From positions 1-42,776 of the IMG/VR virus record IMGVR_UViG_3300005326_000027: 42,776 nucleotides of DNA; one strand, given 5' to 3'. Numbering within the stretch: position 1 is the first letter of the stretch; the number at the start of each line of letters is the position of its first letter. The DNA is from a virus. This document shows, piece by piece, positions 1,854 to 42,776 of the stretch. The notes beneath the pieces were generated by a model. That model had not been told where the DNA came from, ran no database searches, and saw only the letters and a list, made by a program, of their open reading frames with translations. The translations under genes and the position numbers were made by a program.

Positions 1854-2387
1854 TTATACTCTATTACGTTTTCGCTTTTTTCCCAACAACTTCCTGCGCA
1901 GATTTTCTCTCCGATAACTTTCTCTTTTACATTCACGACAATAAGTATATTTAGCGTATCTCAAGATATCTTCCTCATTGGCAAGAAGATGCCTCTGTCT
2001 CCTACATTTTGAACCCACTGAAAGCTTATGCCCTAAACTACCGTTTCTCCAGCCTCCTCCACCGTTACGTTTGTATAAACCCATACTTTCTAGATATGAA
2101 ATACCCCGCTCAAGATTTACACGTAGAGAAACAGGTTCAAGGTGTTTTGGATTTACGCACGATGTGTTTCTGCATAGATGATCGATGACCAATCCGTTGG
2201 GGATGGTGTCTACAAAAAATTCATACGATGCTCTGTGTGCCATATATGTTTTGTATTTATATCCAAAACGTCCATATCCTTTAGAGTCTTTAGTGTGCAA
2301 CCATAGCCAACATTCTTTTTCTTCACCCACCCGAAAAAATCTTAAAAACCTTTGTAAAAAGCTGTCCGTCTTCCTATTTTTAAACAT
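1854..2387 (-). CDS. HNH homing endonuclease
   Basis: GYGRFGYK...AHRASYE...VIDHLCRNTSCVNPKHLE is typical of the phage HNH_3-type endonuclease signature. Confidence 0.8.
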   Translation of the reverse strand: MFKNRKTDSFLQRFLRFFRVGEEKECWLWLHTKDSKGYGRFGYKYKTYMAHRASYEFFVDTIPNGLVIDHLCRNTSCVNPKHLEPVSLRVNLERGISYLESMGLYKRNGGGGWRNGSLGHKLSVGSKCRRQRHLLANEEDILRYAKYTYCRECKRESYRRENLRRKLLGKKRKRNRV

Positions 2388-5704: not shown

Positions 5705-5788
5705 TTAGTTCGGTACCACCCACAAGAATAACAGCACCACACCGATAATAAAGGCCAGGAACGCAAGTGTTACTTTCACCATAGCCAT
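5705..5788 (-). CDS. Possible 27-aa hydrophobic peptide
   Basis: Hand translation: MAMVKVTLAFLAFIIGVVLLFLWVVPN*. Its stop is 2 nt before the next ATG. Confidence 0.3.
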   Translation of the reverse strand: MAMVKVTLAFLAFIIGVVLLFLWVVPN

Positions 5789-5804: not shown

Positions 5805-5832
5805 AGCGCACCGAGGTCAGCGCACCGAGGTC
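5805..5832. repeat. 14-bp perfect tandem duplication (agcgcaccgaggtc x2)
   Basis: Read directly. It contains the same TGCGCT/AGCGCA core as the 9-bp array at 10891. Confidence 0.8.
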
Positions 5833-5881
5833 GAGGTATTCCATTTCGTCGTTGTTGTGTTTCATTGTTTTAGTAGTTGTT

Positions 5882-6217
5882 TTAATTGTGTTTGTATTCT
5901 TCTTCACCACGTTTGTAGATGCGTTTGCAAGTTCGTAGAATTTCGAGAAGTGTTGCGTGCGCTCGCTCTGCTTCTTTATAGGTTCGATGTTCTTCTGTGG
6001 CTTCACTTCGCAATTTACCTTCCGCAACAGACTTTGAAGAGGTCAAGAGTTCGAGCTTCTTTACGTTGTACTCATGCTCTCGTGCCGTGAGTACCGTAGC
6101 GATGTTGGCAAGAATAGCGGTAGCTTGCACCAAGAGTCCTTCGGCAATTACGGGAGTGAGGGTATCTGGTCGTTCTTGGTGTAGCTGATACAGTGCCAAA
6201 AACTTGTTGTAGTTCAT
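5882..6217 (-). CDS. Hypothetical coiled-coil protein
   Basis: 111-aa ORF with a TAATG overlap to the upstream gene. Confidence 0.55.
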   Translation of the reverse strand: MNYNKFLALYQLHQERPDTLTPVIAEGLLVQATAILANIATVLTAREHEYNVKKLELLTSSKSVAEGKLRSEATEEHRTYKEAERAHATLLEILRTCKRIYKRGEEEYKHN

Positions 6218-8160: not shown

Positions 8161-8538
8161 TCAAGTGTTATCAACCTTACAATCTGTGAATAGTGGACAT
8201 TCTTTCGTACAGATACTTTCGGGAACATCCTCTGGGTTTGGGTGATTGTGTCCTGGCCCAAAGGCTGCTGAGTAATCACCCGTCACTATTTTCTTTGTTA
8301 AATACCTCAGTTTCTCTTCTGCTTTTGCCTCGATCTGCCGGATTCTCTCACGTGTCACACCAAACTTCTGGCCCGTTCGTTCCAGGGAGTTCCATTCTAT
8401 GAGTCGGTAGTACATCACATCGCGCTCTTTTTCGGATAAGTCGCCCGCTCCTTGTGCTAGGTCAAGCATCTCGACGATATTTCCGCGGGAAGAGACTAAC
8501 ATTTGTTTCCACTCGTGGTATGTGAATTGATTTTCCAT
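8161..8538 (-). CDS. Sigma-70 region-4 (HTH) domain protein, no recognisable region 2
   Basis: LSEKERDVMYYRLIEWNSLERTGQKFGVTRERIRQIEAKAEEKLR is a typical sigma region 4.2 signature. Confidence 0.7.
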   Translation of the reverse strand: MENQFTYHEWKQMLVSSRGNIVEMLDLAQGAGDLSEKERDVMYYRLIEWNSLERTGQKFGVTRERIRQIEAKAEEKLRYLTKKIVTGDYSAAFGPGHNHPNPEDVPESICTKECPLFTDCKVDNT

Positions 8539-8543
8539 ATTCT

Positions 8544-8741
8544 CTATGTATCTTGGTTGGTAAGGGCTATTCGACGCATATTCAGCAATCCATTAAAGGG
8601 ATTACGCAGTCTTCGATTAGTACACGGAGCGCAGAGAGGCTTCCATTCGCCTTTGGAGTTTTCTTGCTCCCATGCGTCTTTCTTTGGAACTGGTTTTTTC
8701 TTTGTACACCATCCGCATTTTTCCTGCATTTTATTTCTCAT
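8544..8741 (-). CDS. Zinc-ribbon miniprotein
   Basis: CGWC...CAPC. Confidence 0.5.
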   Translation of the reverse strand: MRNKMQEKCGWCTKKKPVPKKDAWEQENSKGEWKPLCAPCTNRRLRNPFNGLLNMRRIALTNQDT

Positions 8742-8889
8742 TACCTGACTTGTTGGTAAGGGCTAGCGACTCTTCGAAGCCACATCTATCGCATATCCGT
8801 ATTGGGATATACACAATATCACCTGCTGGTTTCCTTTCCGCGAAATAAAACTTGTGTCCGGAAATCTGACAACGGAGTTTGTTTCTCAT
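8731..8889 (-). CDS. Zinc-ribbon-like miniprotein (52 aa)
   Basis: Hand translation: MRNKLRCQISGHKFYF...RICDRCGFEE.... ATGA-coupled upstream. It shares the MRNK start with the next gene. Confidence 0.35.
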   Translation of the reverse strand: MRNKLRCQISGHKFYFAERKPAGDIVYIPIRICDRCGFEESLALTNKSGNEK

Positions 8890-9221
8890 TTCTGTTCTTC
8901 ATTACCTGACTTGATACGGGAGAGGATGTCGTCGACTGTGTTGTTTACCCCAGCGACACGATTGAATTGCGCCAAACTGTACATGTATTCGGGAGAATCT
9001 GGCGACAAAACGTGCGGCTTTTCTTCTCTCATCTTTCCAACCTCCTCCTCAACAAGAAAGAGCTGTTGAGTAAGGGCGGAGGAGAGGAAAGCCTTGATGT
9101 TCTCGTCATTTATCGGTAAAAGCTCTTTTCCTTCGAGTTTCAGGCTATGAAACGAGCCGAACTTCTCGTCGAAATCTTCCAAGGTCTGCTGACGGAATGA
9201 GGTGAGGGGGGTGTTGGTCAT
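8886..9221 (-). CDS. Hypothetical protein
   Basis: ATG 9221 forms an ATGA overlap with the stop of 9218..9403. Confidence 0.5.
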   Translation of the reverse strand: MTNTPLTSFRQQTLEDFDEKFGSFHSLKLEGKELLPINDENIKAFLSSALTQQLFLVEEEVGKMREEKPHVLSPDSPEYMYSLAQFNRVAGVNNTVDDILSRIKSGNEEQK

Positions 9222-9403
9222 TTGAGTTGTCCGATACTTTTCCAACCTTCTGTTTCCAGACTTGCAAACTCCATAATCTCGCAAGCAAGGCATTCTTTGT
9301 TCGCCAGGGGACACACAATGCAGGACTGGGTAAACACTTCACGAACAACGTACATCTCTTCCATATCATCTACATAGAGTTCGTTTATTTTAGGTTTGTT
9401 CAT
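9218..9403 (-). CDS. Zinc-ribbon miniprotein
   Basis: CIVC...CLAC. Confidence 0.5.
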   Translation of the reverse strand: MNKPKINELYVDDMEEMYVVREVFTQSCIVCPLANKECLACEIMEFASLETEGWKSIGQLK

Positions 9404-9453
9404 TTCTCTTTTCTCTTATCTTGTAATGGTACTCTAGGGGGGCAAACTATTTA

Positions 9454-9609
9454 CTAGAGTGAGTTGGTAAGTTTATAAGAGTCTATAAGCTTTTTTAATT
9501 CTTCCCCATTTTTTGCTAACTCTTCAATTCTTCTATCTATCCGATCTCCCAAGATATCCAACCTGCGTTCAGCGATAAAGCTTTCTCTTTGGAAGTCGGC
9601 GAGATTCAT
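9454..9609 (-). CDS. Hypothetical coiled-coil miniprotein (51 aa)
   Basis: Hand translation: MNLADFQRESFIAERRLDILGDRIDRRIEELAKNGEELKKLIDSYKLTNSL*. Confidence 0.4.
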   Translation of the reverse strand: MNLADFQRESFIAERRLDILGDRIDRRIEELAKNGEELKKLIDSYKLTNSL

Positions 9610-9750
9610 AGGGTTGATATTTCATATTGAATAATTCTCTCGACATCGTCGAATCCGAAAACATAGGTATTGCTGAACTCCTGCTTTGCTTTCTGCACAC
9701 GCAATTTAGCCAACAGTTCAAGTAGAATGAGTTTTTCTAGTTCTTTCATC
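9606..9750 (-). pseudogene. Small ORF split by a +1 frame change at CUU UGA (9723..9718)
   Basis: MKELEKLILL stops at a TGA. Skipping one T continues as ELLAKLRVQKAKQEFSNTYVFGFDDVERIIQYEISTL*, whose stop is ATGA-coupled to the next gene. Confidence 0.35.
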
Positions 9751-9762
9751 CAAAGTATTCGT

Positions 9763-9927
9763 TAGACTTGGTAATCACTTTTTTACTTTCTTACTCTTCC
9801 TCGCCTCCACTCCCTTCTCGGAGAGTTTCTTCATAAAAGCACTGTAGCCTTCCTTGCCCATCTCTTTGCGACGTTTCTTTGCTAAGAGACCAGCCATTTC
9901 TTGGGCTGCCTTATTCTTTACTCGCAT
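9763..9927 (-). CDS. Basic miniprotein (54 aa)
   Basis: Hand translation: MRVKNKAAQEMAGLLAKKRRKEMGKEGYSAFMKKLSEKGVEARKSKKVKSDYQV*. Confidence 0.4.
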
Positions 9928-10256
9928 TAGTCGATCACAATTTTTAGCTCTTTGTCCCAGGGATTATATTCCATTTCATGCAAGACCTTTCTCGTTCCTG
10001 CCTCAACTTCCTGAACACCATGTTCTTGGTCACCACCTACATGCTGAATTAGATAGGGTTCATCGCAGTGGATATACTCAACGCCACTTTCGGTCCACCT
10101 AAAAATAAGGGCGTTTTTGGAAACAACCTCGTGGCGGTTGCCCGTTGGACCAGAGTCTTGGAGAATGTGGAGTTTTGACAGTGCTGCGTCTCCTGGCCTG
10201 GTAACTCCTTCGAAAGGATAGAGAACAAGATCGCCATGGTTGTTTAAAGTTTCCAT
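9927..10256 (-). CDS. Hypothetical protein
   Basis: 109-aa ORF. HGDLVLYP...GPTGNRHEV...EHGVQEV...EYNPW is reminiscent of small beta-barrel phage proteins. No function assigned. Confidence 0.55.
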   Translation of the reverse strand: METLNNHGDLVLYPFEGVTRPGDAALSKLHILQDSGPTGNRHEVVSKNALIFRWTESGVEYIHCDEPYLIQHVGGDQEHGVQEVEAGTRKVLHEMEYNPWDKELKIVID

Positions 10257-10257
10257 A

Positions 10258-11370
10258 TTATGACTTCTTAGATACTAATAATTCGTTTGTTGTTTGGTGC
10301 CGAAGTTTTGCAACTGTTTCAAGAGCGTTTGTGCTTTCTGGTGGTACAAACTTTATATATTCCTTCGCTGAACTCCACCCCGAATAGGCAAGAACTTTGC
10401 ACGTTCCGATTCCTTTGAGATTTAGTTCCCATAAATCGTATCCGCCGCACTCGTCAGAATGATCTACCAGTGTTTTTTGTACTGTTTCAAGCAACTCCTT
10501 GATTGGTCGCTCACGTAGAAGTGCTGAACGCTGGTCGATGTCCTCCCAGGCAATAATGTCTGTAATAGTGGCTGTTTGAGACTTCTTGAACTGCTCTTCG
10601 GTGAATTTTACCCCGTGGATGTAAAAAACTTCTGCTCCACCCTTCCAGTGAATTGCCGGACCATTTGTTGAATGGAAGCGATTTTCCACATCTATTTTTA
10701 CAAGGGGTGTAGGAACTAAGTACAAAGTGTCTTCGTACTCAACTCTGTAACCAAGTCCTGCTTCCTTTGCCTGCATGAGAAGTTCACAGTATTTGAGATA
10801 TTTCTTATCATGTTCATTTACTGGAAAATCTGAATCTGGATTTTCGCAATACTCGTGTTCGATTACAAACCAGTCGAAATCATAGTCTAGTGCGCTCCCT
10901 GCGCTCCGTGCGCTCCGTGCGCTCCGTGCGCTCCATGCGCTCCATGCGCTCCGTGCGCTCCCTGCGCTCCGTGCGCTCCATGCGCTCCGTGCGCTCCATG
11001 CGCTCCGTGCGCTCCCTGCGCTCCCTGCGCTCCCTGCGCTCCGTGCGCTCCGTGCGCTCCATGCGCTCCCTGCGCTCCCTGCGCTCCCTGCGCTCCATGC
11101 GCTCCATGCGCTCCCTGCGCTCCGTGCGCTCCCTGCGCTCCCTGCGCTCCGTGCGCTCCATGCGCTCCCTGCGCTGTCGATAGCATCTACGAATTTCTTT
11201 TCAAAGATGTCTTTATACCAAACCACTTTTTTTGGCCGTGGTAGATCAAAAAGATCGTAGGTTTTAAGAATGAGTTCCTCGCTCAGTTTTTTGTCGAGAA
11301 CAAAGTCTTCACGTTCTACATTGCGGCACTGACGTTCTATTAAATCTGCTGTTTTTTGTGAATAATCCAT
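10258..11370 (-). CDS. Repeat-containing protein: N-terminal region, 31 x S-A-[G/W/R], and a conserved-looking C-terminal domain
   Basis: 370-aa ORF. The C-terminal motif [24 protein letters not shown] resembles, from memory, the DUF6745-type family. This is unverified. Confidence 0.65.
10891..11175. repeat. 31.7 tandem copies of the 9-bp unit TGCGCTCCN, where N is C, G or A only
   Basis: Counted directly: N is C x12, G x11, A x8 and T x0. All other positions are invariant and all six frames are open. Confidence 0.95.
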
Positions 11371-11412
11371 AATTACTTTTTTATCTGCCCCTACAGTCTA
11401 GCGCACGGTTGA

Positions 11413-11589
11413 CTAAAAGTCCATGAGATCCTCTGGCAACTTCAAACCTAACTGCTCATAGATAGCTTTACGCTCTACATCAATCTTGGCACGCATGTCG
11501 GGTGGTATGGCTGGTGCTATACCTTCTCTGTACTGCTTGGCTCTCTGCTCACGAGTCCAGTTGTCGGCGATTGTTTCTTTGTTGCTCAT
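11413..11589 (-). CDS. Hypothetical miniprotein (58 aa)
   Basis: ATG 11589 is ATGA-coupled to the upstream stop. Confidence 0.5.
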   Translation of the reverse strand: MSNKETIADNWTREQRAKQYREGIAPAIPPDMRAKIDVERKAIYEQLGLKLPEDLMDF

Positions 11590-13131: not shown

Positions 13132-13668
13132 ATGAAAAAGTATTCAGTCGTGTATGCAGATCCACCGTGGAGTTACAACGACAAGATGTCGGGTCACTCA
13201 TTTTCTTTAGACCACGAATATAAAACACAGAGCAAAGAATGGATCAGTTCTCTTTCTGTGGGCAGTATCTCCGCAAAAGATAGCGTTCTCTTTCTGTGGG
13301 CAGTATCTCCGCAACTGCCAGAGGCCCTCCAAGTGATGAAAGATTGGGGCTTTAAGTATGTAACAGTAGCATTTTGTTGGAGCAAGAATCATAAAAGTGG
13401 AAAGAAGGTCAAGAATCTCGGTAGGTGGACGATGGGCAACGTTGAGGTATGCCTTCTGGGTAGAAAAGGCCGACCACAAAGATTGGTTAAAAACGTTCGT
13501 CAGTTAGTAGAAGCGGAACGTACTCGACATTCGCAAAAACCAGCAGAAGTACGAAATAGAATTGTAGAACTCATGGGAGATATTCCACGGATCGAACTTT
13601 TCGCTAGAGAGAAAACAGAGGGTTGGGATGTATGGGGAAATGAGGTGGAAAGTGATATAGAAATGTGA
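13132..13668 (+). CDS. MT-A70 family DNA N6-adenine methyltransferase
   Basis: YADPPWSY (the DPPW catalytic motif), then VLFLWAV, WGFKYVT, HSQKP and ELFAREKTEGWDVWGNEV. This is the canonical family order. Confidence 0.85.
   Translation: MKKYSVVYADPPWSYNDKMSGHSFSLDHEYKTQSKEWISSLSVGSISAKDSVLFLWAVSPQLPEALQVMKDWGFKYVTVAFCWSKNHKSGKKVKNLGRWTMGNVEVCLLGRKGRPQRLVKNVRQLVEAERTRHSQKPAEVRNRIVELMGDIPRIELFAREKTEGWDVWGNEVESDIEM
13247..13314. repeat. Perfect 30-bp direct repeat (13247-13276 and 13285-13314, period 38) inside the methyltransferase CDS
   Basis: gttctctttctgtgggcagtatctccgcaa occurs twice. Copy 1 is read as SSLSVGSISA and copy 2 as VLFLWAVSPQ. Confidence 0.95.
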
Positions 13669-13674
13669 TAGAAT
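13666..13674 (+). promoter_or_regulatory. Extended -10 (TGaTAGAAT) 9 nt upstream of ATG 13684
   Basis: Read directly. Confidence 0.4.
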
Positions 13675-13683
13675 TAACAAGCG

Positions 13684-14079
13684 ATGAAGTACACCGTACT
13701 GCTCGCCCTTACTTGCTCTTTTCTTCTCCTTCCACTCCAAGCTAGGGCGGTAGACAGACAGACCATTGATTTTGTAATCGAAGCTCATGCGGAAAGAATC
13801 GGCATGGATGCTAACTTGGCTAAAAAAATAGCTTGGTGTGAATCGGGCTACCAAGAAAAAGTAGTATCTCGTACGGGTGACCGAGGAATTTACCAGCTAA
13901 ATGGAGTCCACGACAGGGAGCTAAAAAAGTTAGACCTCGATCCATTTAATTTTCAGGAAAACATAGAATTTGCTTTTATCCTCATGGAAAGGAATGGTGT
14001 GAGAGATTGGTATTCCAGTCGGCATTGCTGGTCAAAGACCGCATACAAACCTAAAAAAGTAGCACGAAAACTCTTGTAA
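13684..14079 (+). CDS. Secreted lysozyme-fold / lytic transglycosylase-like protein
   Basis: Signal-like N-terminus MKYTVLLALTCSFLLLPLQARA. Motifs WCESGYQ...DRGIYQLNG...W. Confidence 0.55.
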   Translation: MKYTVLLALTCSFLLLPLQARAVDRQTIDFVIEAHAERIGMDANLAKKIAWCESGYQEKVVSRTGDRGIYQLNGVHDRELKKLDLDPFNFQENIEFAFILMERNGVRDWYSSRHCWSKTAYKPKKVARKLL

Positions 14080-14435: not shown

Positions 14436-16163
14436 ATGGAAAAAAGCACACTTCCTTTAACGGGTTCACAAGCACAAGAAAAGATACTCGCAGGGATAAC
14501 GAAGGTATTTAACGTAATTGCCCCAACTCTCGGCCCAGCAGGGCGTTCTGTGCTTGTTCCTAGAACGTTCAACCGTGGGCCTCGTGTGGCCGATGACGGC
14601 TATCTGGCAGCAGAGAACGTACTCCTCAAAGACCCTCACGAAAAGCTCGCAGCGGAAACATACAAAGAGGGTATTAAGAAAACCAACCTCATGGGAGGTG
14701 ACGGTACAACTGGTACGGGTGTGCTTTCATACAACGCCTACCTAAAGGCAACCAAACTTCTTCCCCAGGAATCAGTGGGTGGTGTGCCTCTTCTTCTTGC
14801 TCCAGGAAAAAAGGCTCCCGAAAAGAAATCAGTGCGCCAGATACGAAAAGAGATGCACGATGCAAAAGACCTTGTGCTTGCCGAGATTAAGAAATCAGCA
14901 AAGCAGATCAAAACACTCCAAGACCTTGAAAAAGTAGCCCTAGTATCTCTTGGAAAGGAAGACGAAGTAATTGCAAAACTTGTTGCAAAAATGGTGTGGG
15001 AAGTAGCCCGAGACGCAGCAGGAAACTTCGTAGACAACCACATTGACGTGGTAGAGGGCTATAAGGGCGAAGTGGAGACCGAAGTGACCCAAGGTATGCG
15101 TATCCCAGCCAAAGTATCGGCCAACGCCTTTATCAACCGCCTAGACCGTCACGAAATGGTGGCAGAAGACACGCCTGTATTCATCACGAACCACAAGCTC
15201 GACAGCGTGATGCTCGCGAAGGCACTCATCGAAGCACTCCGCACAGCCAAGCTCTCTATCTTCGCCCCTGACTTCTCTTCCGATGTTCTTAAATACATGG
15301 TGTCGCTTTGCCAGAATAACGGCTTTACTCTCTATCCCATTAAAAGCCCCTCACTCCGCACGGTACAGCTCGAAGACCTAGCTATTTACACAGGTGCAAA
15401 GGTACTCGACAAAGAAACGTCGGCAAAACTTGAGAACGCAACGCCTGACATGCTCGGCTTTGCTACTAAAATTATCGTGAAGTCGGTAGAGAATAGGGAA
15501 GATGCTGTAGTTCTTGGTGGACAAGGCGCAAAGACAAAGCGTGGAAAGGATGACCTTATCTCCGAGCGCATCAAAACTCTTAAAGGCCAGATGAAAGAAA
15601 CGCGCACTGATATGGAACGAATGTCCCTCGAAAAACGCATAGCGAATCTTAATGCCTCAACAGGCGTAGTGCGTGTAGCCTCCTCAACCGAAGGTGACGG
15701 GCTCTTCCTCAAACTCAAGATTGAAGATGCTGTCTACGCTTGCAAAGGCGCACTCGAAGAAGGTTATGTGAAAGGTGGTGGACTAGCCTTAAAGGAAATT
15801 GCCGAAAAACTACCCGAAAACATCCTCACAGAAGCTCTTAAATCTCCCTACAACCAGATTCAGAAAAATGCAGGTGGTTCACTCGAAATCGGCAAAGACA
15901 TCTTCGACCCAGCAAAGGTAGTACGCATGATTGTAGAACACGGTGTAACGGTAGCCGCATCACTCATTACTATCCACGCTGTAATCCCAGAAGCACCAGA
16001 AAAGACAGAGGCAGAAGGCATGGAGATGGTAGCAAAAGCACTTTCAAAGATTGCCTACTACAACGCAAAGCACCAAGGAATGCTCAAGGAGAACGAAGAC
16101 GAAGCAGAATCTGACCGCCAAAAAGAATTTGACCGTGTGATGTTTGAGGACAGGCAAGGATAA
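14436..16163 (+). CDS. GroEL/Cpn60-like chaperonin
   Basis: 575 aa. Motifs: GPAGRSVL, ADDGYLAAENV, GGDGTTGTGVLS (the GDGTT nucleotide-binding motif) and a late GGGLAL. The C-terminus is acidic rather than a GGM repeat. Confidence 0.8.
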   Translation: MEKSTLPLTGSQAQEKILAGITKVFNVIAPTLGPAGRSVLVPRTFNRGPRVADDGYLAAENVLLKDPHEKLAAETYKEGIKKTNLMGGDGTTGTGVLSYNAYLKATKLLPQESVGGVPLLLAPGKKAPEKKSVRQIRKEMHDAKDLVLAEIKKSAKQIKTLQDLEKVALVSLGKEDEVIAKLVAKMVWEVARDAAGNFVDNHIDVVEGYKGEVETEVTQGMRIPAKVSANAFINRLDRHEMVAEDTPVFITNHKLDSVMLAKALIEALRTAKLSIFAPDFSSDVLKYMVSLCQNNGFTLYPIKSPSLRTVQLEDLAIYTGAKVLDKETSAKLENATPDMLGFATKIIVKSVENREDAVVLGGQGAKTKRGKDDLISERIKTLKGQMKETRTDMERMSLEKRIANLNASTGVVRVASSTEGDGLFLKLKIEDAVYACKGALEEGYVKGGGLALKEIAEKLPENILTEALKSPYNQIQKNAGGSLEIGKDIFDPAKVVRMIVEHGVTVAASLITIHAVIPEAPEKTEAEGMEMVAKALSKIAYYNAKHQGMLKENEDEAESDRQKEFDRVMFEDRQG

Positions 16164-42620: not shown

Positions 42621-42776
42621 ATGACCACAGAACCCTATTACGACAGCGAGCATGAAGTAATAGAGAAAAATGTTCCAGGTGGACTTCTTGACCTTCCTTT
42701 TGACGGAAATGATTACGCCCTGGGTTCTATTTTTAAACAGCCTGACCTCTCTACTCTCCCAGAATCCTTTTGGTAC
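42621..42776 (+). CDS. 5' part of the papain-like peptidase gene, continuing at position 124 through the repeat (same gene as 1..891)
   Basis: ATG at 42621: MTTEPYYDSEH then EVIEKNVPGG.... It is in phase with frame 1 at position 1. Confidence 0.7.
   Translation, partial: MTTEPYYDSEHEVIEKNVPGGLLDLPFDGNDYALGSIFKQPDLSTLPESFWY
42654..42776. repeat. Terminal direct repeat copy 2 (identical to 1..123)
   Basis: Same comparison as for copy 1. Confidence 0.95.

Follow-up and report, generated by a model that had tools for sequence, protein, structure and literature searches.

How does a viral gene come to carry 31 tandem copies of a 9-bp unit in which eight positions never change and the remaining one takes three states? 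The question is raised by an array in the window (the whole stretch of DNA analysed here, i.e. 42,776 nucleotides of the IMG/VR record IMGVR_UViG_3300005326_000027), for which a sequence-only reading had left several answers standing: a contingency locus or variable linker under protein-level selection, an array acting as DNA, or targeted mutagenesis of a single base.

The array and its reading frame

The features concerned are the following:

11176..11370, minus strand: N-terminal conserved part, aa 1-65 (pLDDT 88-98; conserved motif)
10891..11175, minus strand: in-frame 9-bp minisatellite, 31 units AGC-GCA-[G/C/T]GG and a partial unit, encoding (Ser-Ala-Gly/Arg/Trp)31
10261..10890, minus strand: C-terminal conserved part, aa 161-370, with LDYDFDW.., the DUF6745 core NRFHS..PAIxWKGG..Y.HGV and then a sub-domain FTEEQF..DIDQRS..ECGGY
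10258..11370, minus strand: gene of the 370-aa DUF6745-superfamily protein that holds these three parts (an ORF with more than 160 homologues in homologue searches)
9927..10256, minus strand: partner gene, 109 aa, all-beta, starting 2 nt past the stop of the array gene

On the plus strand, positions 10891-11175 consist of 31 full units TGCGCTCCN and a partial unit TGCGCT, each full unit being TGCGCTCC[C/G/A] (n=31). A recount and TRF (period 9, 31.7 copies, score 437) confirm what had been read from the letters: unit positions 1-8 are without variation in 31/31 units, and position 9 is C in 12 units, G in 11, A in 8 and T in none. Chance is excluded, as a 15-mer pattern of the array has 31 matches in it against 0.2 expected. 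These 31.7 head-to-tail copies lie in frame within an intact ORF, as in a coding minisatellite or VNTR. Translation of ORF 10258..11370 agrees with the claimed Ser-Ala-[G/W/R] tract in a 370-aa minus-strand protein: (SA[G/W/R])31 occupies aa 66-158 and is followed by SA at aa 159-160. The order of states, GWRGGRGWWGGGWRRGGGRWRWRGRWWRRRG, is identical to the one first reported. It looks random in composition, runs and autocorrelation, in line with the lack of period noted earlier, and no sub-string of more than 3 units recurs in it, a maximum below that of 97% of shuffles.

Two structural candidates were rejected. A hairpin pairing unit i with unit 32-i gives 2 same-state pairs against about 5 expected (counted by hand), which is not significant. 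A collagen-like or polyglycine-II Gly-X-Y tract does not fit either, Gly being present at only 12/31 third positions (Trp at 8) and the other two positions being Ser and Ala. All six frames are open across the window array, as had been claimed, because of the unit sequence itself; each unit also carries a GCGC site, and each unit junction a GGAG-like motif. The ORFs of 93, 97 and 99 aa that cross the array in alternative frames were rejected as functional, open frames not being conserved in relatives.

Variation among relatives and its origin

SA-X units stand at the same site in all 114 aligned relatives and number about 2 to 35, proteins and loci taken together; the relatives bearing (Ser-Ala-X)n at the window site are 35-66% identical. 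The comparison with homologues suggested by the sequence-only reading thus places the array in every aligned relative and centres the variation on one non-synonymous site. The word pre-filter of our initial homologue search favoured proteins with an array; this was corrected by flank-only patterns and a search with the C-domain alone, and every locus found by the flank-only patterns also has an array. In 106 automatically parsed arrays (median 11 units), Ser makes up 88% of position 1 and Ala 92% of position 2, and the third residue is W (393), R (359), G (337) or S (100), with E, L, M, S and V as further states in some lineages. The third-residue codon follows the pattern NGG.

The codons tell more than the residues. 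Across arrays, Ser is encoded in all six ways (TCT/TCA/TCC/TCG/AGT/AGC) and Ala in all four. Within arrays, heterozygosity is 0.65 at position 7, which is non-synonymous, against 0.004 at position 3 and 0.014 at position 6; between arrays, it is 0.75 at position 3 and 0.70 at position 6. Units are therefore more alike within than between genomes, and copy number varies from 2 to 35, the two marks of concerted evolution. Gly is encoded by GGG 188 times and by other codons 4 times. For Arg, AGG is used 150 times and CGG 48 times, and 27 arrays are AGG-only, 5 CGG-only and 0 mixed, in a set that includes non-independent arrays (L018 and L030 are one and the same contig, as are L021 and L029, and the members of the pairs L008/L027 and L020/L024 are nearly identical). 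A tree built from the flanks is star-shaped and uninformative on the number of AGG/CGG switches. Block duplications were found in L001 (11 units, P = 0.0008), L007 (9 units), L017 (8) and L019 (7), and L008 differs from L027 by a 3-unit indel between 100% identical flanks, L027 ending inside the array.

Taken together, the array is probably an ordinary slippage-driven coding minisatellite, in its identity as in its evolutionary mechanism. Replication slippage or unequal recombination would lead to gain and loss of units and multi-unit blocks, in arbitrary phase; this turnover would keep the units of one genome alike at eight positions, and separate lineages would drift to separate synonymous Ser and Ala codons. 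This DNA-level part of the account is largely shown by the patterns above. Slippage alone leaves a single variable site unexplained, as the sequence-only reading rightly held, so that selection must also favour a mix of residue classes. At the protein level, selection would fix Ser and Ala and keep a roughly even mix of small (Gly, and Ser in some lineages), aromatic (Trp) and cationic (Arg) third residues. Such selection on Ser-Ala and the three classes is shown by comparison of sequences: the three-class mix persists across lineages while adjoining synonymous sites have been swept to uniformity, and we infer balancing selection from these comparative patterns. Recurrent mutation at position 7, combined with selection, could also contribute. 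Among the options first listed, a variable tract under protein-level selection is hence the one that stood, Ser-Ala-X being kept despite free Ser and Ala codons, and variation among the units of one array being almost confined to the non-synonymous site. A strict on/off contingency locus did not, because 9-bp units never shift the frame: the array lies inside an ORF, and the arrays of all relatives are in frame.

The apparently forbidden state would have an equally simple origin. Trp has TGG as its only codon, and out-of-phase duplication would join the first base of this codon to the second and third bases from a neighbouring unit; these two positions would therefore be locked to GG in every class, leaving GGG, TGG and either AGG or CGG. 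We infer that this lock, imposed on the remainder of the variable codon by a single Trp codon, is the reason for NGG. Turnover within the Arg class would be neutral, so that one Arg codon wins per array; CGG won in the window, and A consequently looks forbidden there. The mechanism behind the DNA pattern would be ordinary (slippage, concerted evolution and protein-level selection), and the locus offers an unusually clean natural case in which synonymous sites are homogenized and one non-synonymous site is held polymorphic.

Neutral, mutational, assembly and DNA-level alternatives

The alternative that survives best, although we regard it as unlikely, is a neutral expansion tolerated in a permissive surface loop, with G, W and R as one-step NGG neighbours in an unselected mix. 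It agrees with a fold retained while copy number spans 2-35, with an array modelled as unstructured by AF2, and with the extra states E, L, M, S and V, all one-step neighbours of NGG codons. However, neutrality predicts synonymous unit variants to be at least as common as non-synonymous ones, and they are about 50-150 times rarer. Moreover, W is kept in 98/106 arrays and R in 100/106 despite complete sweeps 1-4 nt away, Ser and Ala are conserved in a loop that is supposedly unconstrained, and analogous arrays are present in 132/149 top-ranked superfamily representatives examined.

Site-directed hypermutation of the first base of NGG, either DGR-like or arising because the 5' G of GGG is chemically or oxidatively vulnerable, is very unlikely. 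One nucleotide does hold all the variation, NGG translates to exactly {G, W, R}, and a 12-bp array of a distant relative shows the NGG triad again. Variable regions of DGRs likewise are phage-encoded, hypervariable at set codon positions and devoid of stop codons. Yet random mutation would mix synonymous codons, and AGG and CGG never share an array; the 'forbidden' base that had hinted at targeted mutagenesis simply corresponds to AGG, the synonymous Arg codon used by most relatives, and with it the hint disappears. The array is also the same in three assemblies, although SNPs separate these elsewhere. Finally, a DGR depends on a reverse transcriptase and a template repeat and makes adenine-specific changes, and nothing of the kind was found in the window: the complete 42.7-kb genome holds no second copy of the repeat that could serve as a template, and no reverse transcriptase domain was found in 40 ORFs against Pfam or PHROGs (ORFs below about 100 aa being scanned in part). 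Template adenines all vary in DGRs, whereas those of AGC and GCA are fixed here, and each array uses three bases, never both A and C. The variation in the window is that of inherited unit types, unlike the random bases of a DGR.

Still less probable is an assembly artefact, in which short-read units would have been collapsed or mis-ordered, as the sequence-only reading had cautioned. In about a third of related loci the contig does stop within the array or at its edge, which indicates that such arrays often break assemblies, and a search of genome contigs yielded only five MAG fragments, most of them terminating at the array. In practice, arrays of this kind break assemblies and mislead gene callers, and short-read assemblies may favour those with unique k-mers. 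Against the caveat, the 41-mers of the array are all single-copy (repeated k-mers of at least 41 are absent from 10701-11400), the ORF is in frame throughout and its flanks are conserved. In addition, two contigs from other public records, L041 (ENA ERZ27247099) and L042 (JGI 3300030493), are 99.94% identical to the window, with 1-2 SNPs over 2-3 kb, one directly past the array, and contain the same 31 units in the same order.

The least probable alternative of all is that the array acts as DNA or RNA (binding or methylation/restriction (GCGC) sites, a decoy, mRNA structure or pausing), the protein being secondary: the GCGC sites, the GGAG-like junctions and the six open frames of the window would suit it, but a GCGC frequency near one per unit is reached in only 3/34 arrays (a fourth, L010, has 0.72), all six frames are open in only 12/34, and the nucleotide unit differs in nearly every lineage, with just W-S-N-G-C-N-N-G-G conserved, while the peptide unit and the reading frame are constant. 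A family-wide DNA-level role, be it array, decoy or binding site, is refuted by these data as far as sequence comparison goes; the DNA motif, the GCGC site and the open frames are incidental, because Ser and Ala codons vary freely between arrays.

The host protein, its partner and a possible function

At superfamily level, and by transitivity, the window protein is on sequence grounds a member of DUF6745. Its own match to PF20530 is weak and does not reach the gathering score (E 0.0019, 17.9 bits versus a cut-off of 27), but many homologues at 45-60% identity have precomputed PF20530 matches, P0128 scores 55 bits, and the core motif R-[FL]-H-S ... P-A-I-x-W-x-x-G ... Y-x-x-H-G-V is present. 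The BFVD entry that matches its fold best is a DUF6745 protein, that of Microcystis phage LMM01 (E 1e-10, TM 0.47). Invariant or near-invariant columns are C15, E19, T37, D39, F41, R45, P46, W51 and D54 in the N-terminal part, and H233, S234, P238, A239, I240, W242, K243, G245 and G253 in the C-terminal core. In the AF2 model (pLDDT 79, pTM 0.72), the flanks reach about 90 or higher, except for the C-terminal tail, and pLDDT falls below 50 at aa 77-151, the first and last few units prolonging the flanking helices; a low pLDDT is no proof of disorder, and the tract may have a regular structure beyond the reach of AF2, e.g. that of a helical hairpin or a PPII bundle. Net charge is +11 for the array, -14 for the flanks and -12 for the C-terminal part. 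The gene belongs to a block of small genes that runs leftward, opposite to the structural module, and is therefore probably expressed early. The array protein received no assignment from PHROGs, PADLOC or NCBIfam and no match in the PDB by sequence profile or by fold; blastn and tblastn against 50,697 GenBank phage records gave no match, the gene thus being missing from cultured or deposited phages, and DUF6745 or PF20530 is mentioned in zero papers of the searched literature.

The adjacent 109-aa protein has ten invariant residues (H7, D9, H42, E43, H72, D76, E78, H79, E94 and E96) and an AF2 model with a pLDDT of 91. With a profile built from 33 homologues (A4), the partner ORF was found to adjoin a DUF6745 gene, upstream or downstream, in 23 fetched loci, two of which are near-identical copies of the window. 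No match to Pfam, PDB sequences or PDB folds and no PADLOC assignment was obtained for it; among its weak, non-significant fold matches are a few to cupin-fold enzymes, too weak to use.

The DUF6745 family comprises 8,626 clusters at 50% identity. More distant members carry 4-residue (12-bp) arrays at the equivalent place, of which the searched literature holds no description. These resemble the window array in the homologous C-terminal core, in the insertion point after the N-terminal part, in the perfect DNA units, in the variation restricted to the first two codon positions of one or two residues and in the same partner gene adjoining; one of them, SQV[W/G/R], even has the window-type TGG/GGG/AGG triad. 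Unlike the window array, they are made of 12-bp units (x-A-V-x, S-Q-L-x, S-Q-V-x, D-S-V-x), each containing a hydrophobic residue, their variable set is mostly G/D/R/H/N/S/Y/E, and they are followed by a Trp/Gly-rich segment, of which the window protein is devoid. The same design thus recurs across an uncharacterized family, with a conserved small partner gene alongside.

For tripeptide and tetrapeptide repeats in phages, a literature search returned loose analogues only. Among the closest parallels are the short in-frame tandem repeats of Plasmodium antigens (NANP/NVDP in CSP, AHH/AHHAAD in HRP-II): perfect 9-12-bp coding units, few one-residue variants interspersed without period, copy-number variation, within-gene concerted evolution and low-complexity, poorly structured tracts. 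Those, however, are eukaryotic surface or secreted antigens under host immunity and share no homology with the window tract, which forms a loop inside a globular phage protein of probably cytoplasmic location, with G/W/R tied to NGG. Human MVR minisatellites also have near-identical units in a few variant states without period, reordered by block duplication and deletion, but they are non-coding and driven by germline recombination, whereas the variant site of the window is non-synonymous and appears to be held by selection. With TALE/PPR-like arrays, the resemblance is formal only (a constant scaffold and one variable residue per unit). HxsA, of the HXS anti-phage system, has His-x-Ser repeats that are enriched in basic residues and are proposed to act electrostatically on DNA (PMC13128918); as in the window, the repeat is of three residues with one free position, and a part in phage-host conflict is proposed. 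HxsA is nevertheless bacterial, with five repeats only, radical-SAM maturation and export to the periplasm (PMC13128918), and the window array has 31 units, is phage-encoded and is not homologous to it. Repeats matured by radical-SAM enzymes (triceptides, HxS) were rejected as a candidate: no radical-SAM gene was found among 40 window ORFs against Pfam or PHROGs, and the adjacent gene encodes an all-beta protein without known family.

As for function, we tentatively propose that the tract may serve as a multivalent interaction surface, a possibility to which we give limited credence. A Trp-rich, low-complexity loop of variable length and positive charge would protrude from an acidic globular fold, with Arg and Trp as stickers and Ser, Ala and Gly as spacers. 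What it binds would be a component of the host, polyanionic or aromatic, e.g. nucleic acid, envelope or a defence protein; the tract would probably act together with the 109-aa partner, and its pattern would be diversified in phage-host conflict.

A broader reading, more speculative still and in our view rather doubtful, is that the mostly phage-encoded DUF6745 superfamily forms an unrecognized class of repeat-encoded variable proteins. Slippage would build 3- or 4-residue arrays and diversifying selection would keep one or two residues per unit polymorphic, each phage having its own W/R/G or D/R/H/N/S/Y/G pattern. The result would be either a combinatorial recognition surface (TALE-like or antibody-like) for a host polymer or defence factor, or a multi-site substrate modified by the His/Asp/Glu-rich partner; in both cases, the system would be a counterpart of DGRs independent of reverse transcriptase. 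If the patterns are functional, variable proteins of a novel type would be at work in the conflict between phage and host.

Among the Pfam matches of the array protein is a weak, compositional one to Plasmodium_HRP. Public records break the array gene into two pieces, an ORF of 99 aa that is out of frame and a fragment of 172 aa.

A coding minisatellite in a DUF6745-like protein

At window positions 10891-11175, TGCGCTCCN is repeated 31 times and followed by TGCGCT; eight positions of the unit are constant, and the ninth is C (12 units), G (11) or A (8). On the coding strand the unit reads AGC-GCA-[G/C/T]GG, which gives (Ser-Ala-Gly/Arg/Trp)31 at residues 66-158 of a 370-aa protein:

10258..11370, minus strand: 370-aa ORF containing the array

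In kind, this array is a coding minisatellite, and re-reading it in the window confirmed exactly the description made in the sequence-only reading (31 units, eight fixed positions, a three-state ninth, the ORF and the SA[G/W/R] peptide). A whole-genome search with a 15-mer repeat pattern gave 31 matches within the array, where 0.2 were expected, and outside it a single chance hit with two mismatches.

The caution that such an array might be an assembly artefact does not apply here. Indeed, owing to the three-state site, all k-mers of at least 41 are unique inside the array, so that short reads are able to order its units. Moreover, two other public contigs (L041, ENA ERZ27247099; L042, JGI 3300030493) are 99.94-99.95% identical to window 8201-11438, from which they differ by 1-2 SNPs (one of them causes a Val/Ile change 10 codons past the array), and both agree with the window in the number and order of the 31 units. 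This shows that the array is real and that it remained stable while its flanks gained SNPs. As a general warning the caution holds, since about a third of the related loci have a contig end in or at the array, which suggests repeat-induced assembly breaks or within-population array heterogeneity. Contigs starting or ending inside the array are L018/L030, L021/L029, L024, L026-L029 and L034-L037, and circularly permuted viral contigs are cut exactly at it. In the window, no sub-string of more than 3 units recurs in the state order, whereas 97% of shuffles contain a longer repeat; this could reflect ascertainment, as arrays assemble only when their k-mers are unique, or long internal repeats could be selected against.

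Public gene calls for the array gene are erroneous:

L041, 253-552 and 663-1181: public calls
L042, 250-549 and 660-1178: public calls

Instead of the 370-aa protein, they give a 99-aa ORF running across the array in another frame and a 172-aa C-terminal fragment (protein P0121), which is why the exact 370-aa protein is missing from the protein collection searched. At the mRNA level, the Ser codon AGC creates NGGAGC at every unit junction, that is, 31 Shine-Dalgarno-like GGAG motifs; these are probably incidental, being absent from most relatives, in which Ser is encoded by TCN.

Probable selection on a single codon position

Ser-Ala-X units occur at the same point in all 114 aligned homologues (35-66% identity), the number of units varying from about 2 to 35 between proteins and loci. 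The first homologue search favoured repeat words, and the presence of the array was confirmed with flank-only peptide patterns and a search with the C-terminal domain only. In the 106 automatically parsed arrays (median 11 units), the first residue is Ser in 88% and the second Ala in 92% of units, and the third is W (393), R (359), G (337), S (100), L (91, mostly the junction unit), M (20) or E (15).

The DNA of 34 arrays was then compared codon by codon. Units of one array are identical except at position 7:

Mean within-array unit heterozygosity, by unit position
Positions 1-3:.014,.076,.004
Positions 4-6:.018,.016,.014
Positions 7-9:.649,.078,.067

Each array is thus homogenised (concerted evolution). 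Block duplications span 11 units in locus L001 (P = 0.0008), 9 in L007, 8 in L017 and 7 in L019, and the arrays of L008 and L027 differ by a 3-unit indel between flanks that are 100% identical. Between arrays, consensus difference at synonymous sites is almost saturated (0.75 at position 3, 0.70 at position 6), Ser being encoded by TCT, TCA, TCC, TCG, AGT or AGC and Ala by GCG, GCA, GCT or GCC. What is conserved is thus the peptide, not the DNA. Accounting for the array by protein-level selection, one of several options raised previously, gains from this conservation across changing codons and from the retained W/R mix, and the earlier interpretation is in this part supported.

The third codon is always NGG, except for 4 Gly codons other than GGG (188 are GGG). 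Arg is encoded by AGG (150) or CGG (48), 27 arrays using AGG only, five (window included) CGG only, and none both. The base previously regarded as forbidden is therefore merely that of the synonymous Arg codon used by most relatives; random mutation of that base would mix the two codons, and their strict separation argues against it. The simplest account is that selection maintains three residue classes at the third residue (Trp, Arg and Gly, the last being Ser (AGT) in some lineages), whereas turnover inside each class would be neutral, hence a single Arg codon per array. The fixed GG would be most simply explained by TGG being the sole Trp codon: duplications beginning inside a unit would fuse the first base of its NGG codon with the last two bases of its neighbour's, so that a GGA or CGT variant would soon yield TGA or TGT.

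Neutral tolerance of the variable site fares less well. It predicts synonymous differences among units at least as numerous as non-synonymous ones, whereas about one synonymous difference is seen for every 50 to 150 non-synonymous ones; Trp persists in 98 and Arg in 100 of 106 arrays, even though each lineage has fixed Ser and Ala codons of its own in all units. Targeted mutagenesis, also proposed earlier, is not supported: AGG and CGG are never mixed, the array is the same in three assemblies, the 15-mer pattern search found no second (template) copy in the genome, and no reverse transcriptase was found among the 40 ORFs scanned. Finally, a DNA-level binding-site or decoy array is not supported either: only 3 of the 34 arrays have GCGC at a rate near one per unit, and only 12 keep all six frames open, the peptide being conserved instead.

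A design recurring across the superfamily

A C-domain search revealed a second group, related over the C-terminal approximately 130 residues but not in the N-terminal part, whose arrays at the corresponding site have 4-residue units (SQL[D/R/N/H/S/G/Y], SAI[G/D/R], AV[D/R/G/H][G/D], SV[R/W/G]A). Its profile matched 8,626 cluster representatives at E <= 1e-3 (4,737 of them at E <= 1e-10), and 132 of the 149 top-ranked representatives examined contain period-4 arrays, which start near residue 70-90 and reach about 250 residues. Their DNA follows the same rule as the 9-bp arrays, the 12-bp units differing only at codon positions 1-2 of the variable residue(s). In locus L043, the unit TCT-CAA-GTA-[T/G/A][G/T/A]G encodes SQV[W/G/R/V/E], with the NGG triad of the window. 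The longest array read here at the DNA level lies on a 41.7-kb viral contig (JGI 3300031965) and is made of GGC-GCA-GTC-GGT variants (GAV[G/D/S/R/Y], first residue [G/D/Y/E]):

L044, 2750-3481: 61-unit, 732-bp array

An RtcB-family gene is located about 0.8 kb downstream. The 3-residue array of the window is thus one variant of a superfamily-wide design. DUF6745 and its Pfam model PF20530 were not mentioned in the literature searched; what is new here is a single-site polymorphism kept by selection and locked to NGG, the recurrence of the array design across a large unstudied family, and a linked partner gene.

Structure, partner gene and genome setting

In an AlphaFold2 model (114 homologues; pTM 0.72 overall), residues 1-76 and 150-370 mostly reach a pLDDT of about 90 or higher and residues 77-151 fall below 50, the first and last few array units extending the flanking helices. 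In the model, the array thus behaves as a long loop emerging from a single globular body. A PDB fold search with the array protein gave no match; among predicted viral structures, the protein most resembles the DUF6745 protein of Microcystis phage LMM01 (E 1e-10), in agreement with a sub-threshold PF20530 match. Net charge is +11 for the array, which includes 8 Trp, and -14 for the flanks.

The partner adjoins the array gene:

9927-10256, minus strand: 109-aa partner ORF, starting 2 nt after the array-gene stop

A profile of 33 partner homologues matches the ORF adjoining the DUF6745 gene in 23 fetched loci (including two near-identical copies of the window and one 4-residue-array locus); this ORF lies upstream of the DUF6745 gene in most SA-array loci but downstream of it in the window type. 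Such linkage suggests joint action of the two proteins. The partner has no Pfam or PDB relative and matched no known family or fold; modelled with confidence as all-beta (pLDDT 91), it has His, Asp and Glu residues that are invariant, and it may be a metal-binding partner or modifier. The tract itself is a cationic loop on an acidic body, in which Arg and Trp recur at even intervals between small-residue spacers; it differs in length and pattern in every lineage and appears to be under diversifying selection. It would best fit a surface for multivalent contacts with a host component in phage-host conflict, for example nucleic acid, an envelope or a defence protein; alternatively, the tract may have a regular structure that AlphaFold2 misses, or may serve as a multi-site substrate of the partner.

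The first and last 123 bases of the window are identical (1-123 and 42654-42776), so that it represents a complete phage genome, circular or terminally redundant, of about 42.65 kb; nothing similar was found among 50,697 deposited phage genomes. From 13 kb on, the plus strand encodes a large terminase, a major-head-like protein, a tail fibre and a GroEL-like chaperonin. The array gene belongs to an opposite, leftward block of small genes also coding for a sigma-70 region-4 protein and an HNH endonuclease, and from this layout we infer that it is expressed early.

14436-16163, plus strand: phage-encoded GroEL-like chaperonin (phrog_5725, E 6e-71), directly upstream of the terminase
13132-14079 (+), 8161-8538 (-) and 1854-2387 (-), listed jointly: MT-A70 DNA methyltransferase (E 6e-26), SLT transglycosylase, sigma-70 region-4 protein (E 3e-12), HNH endonuclease
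5805-5832: tandem repeat, 14 bp x 2, perfect
5854-5896: tandem repeat, 21 bp x 2, 81%

The last two repeats lie close together, near the boundary between one ORF that ends at 5723 and another that starts at 5882, and may be regulatory or an origin.
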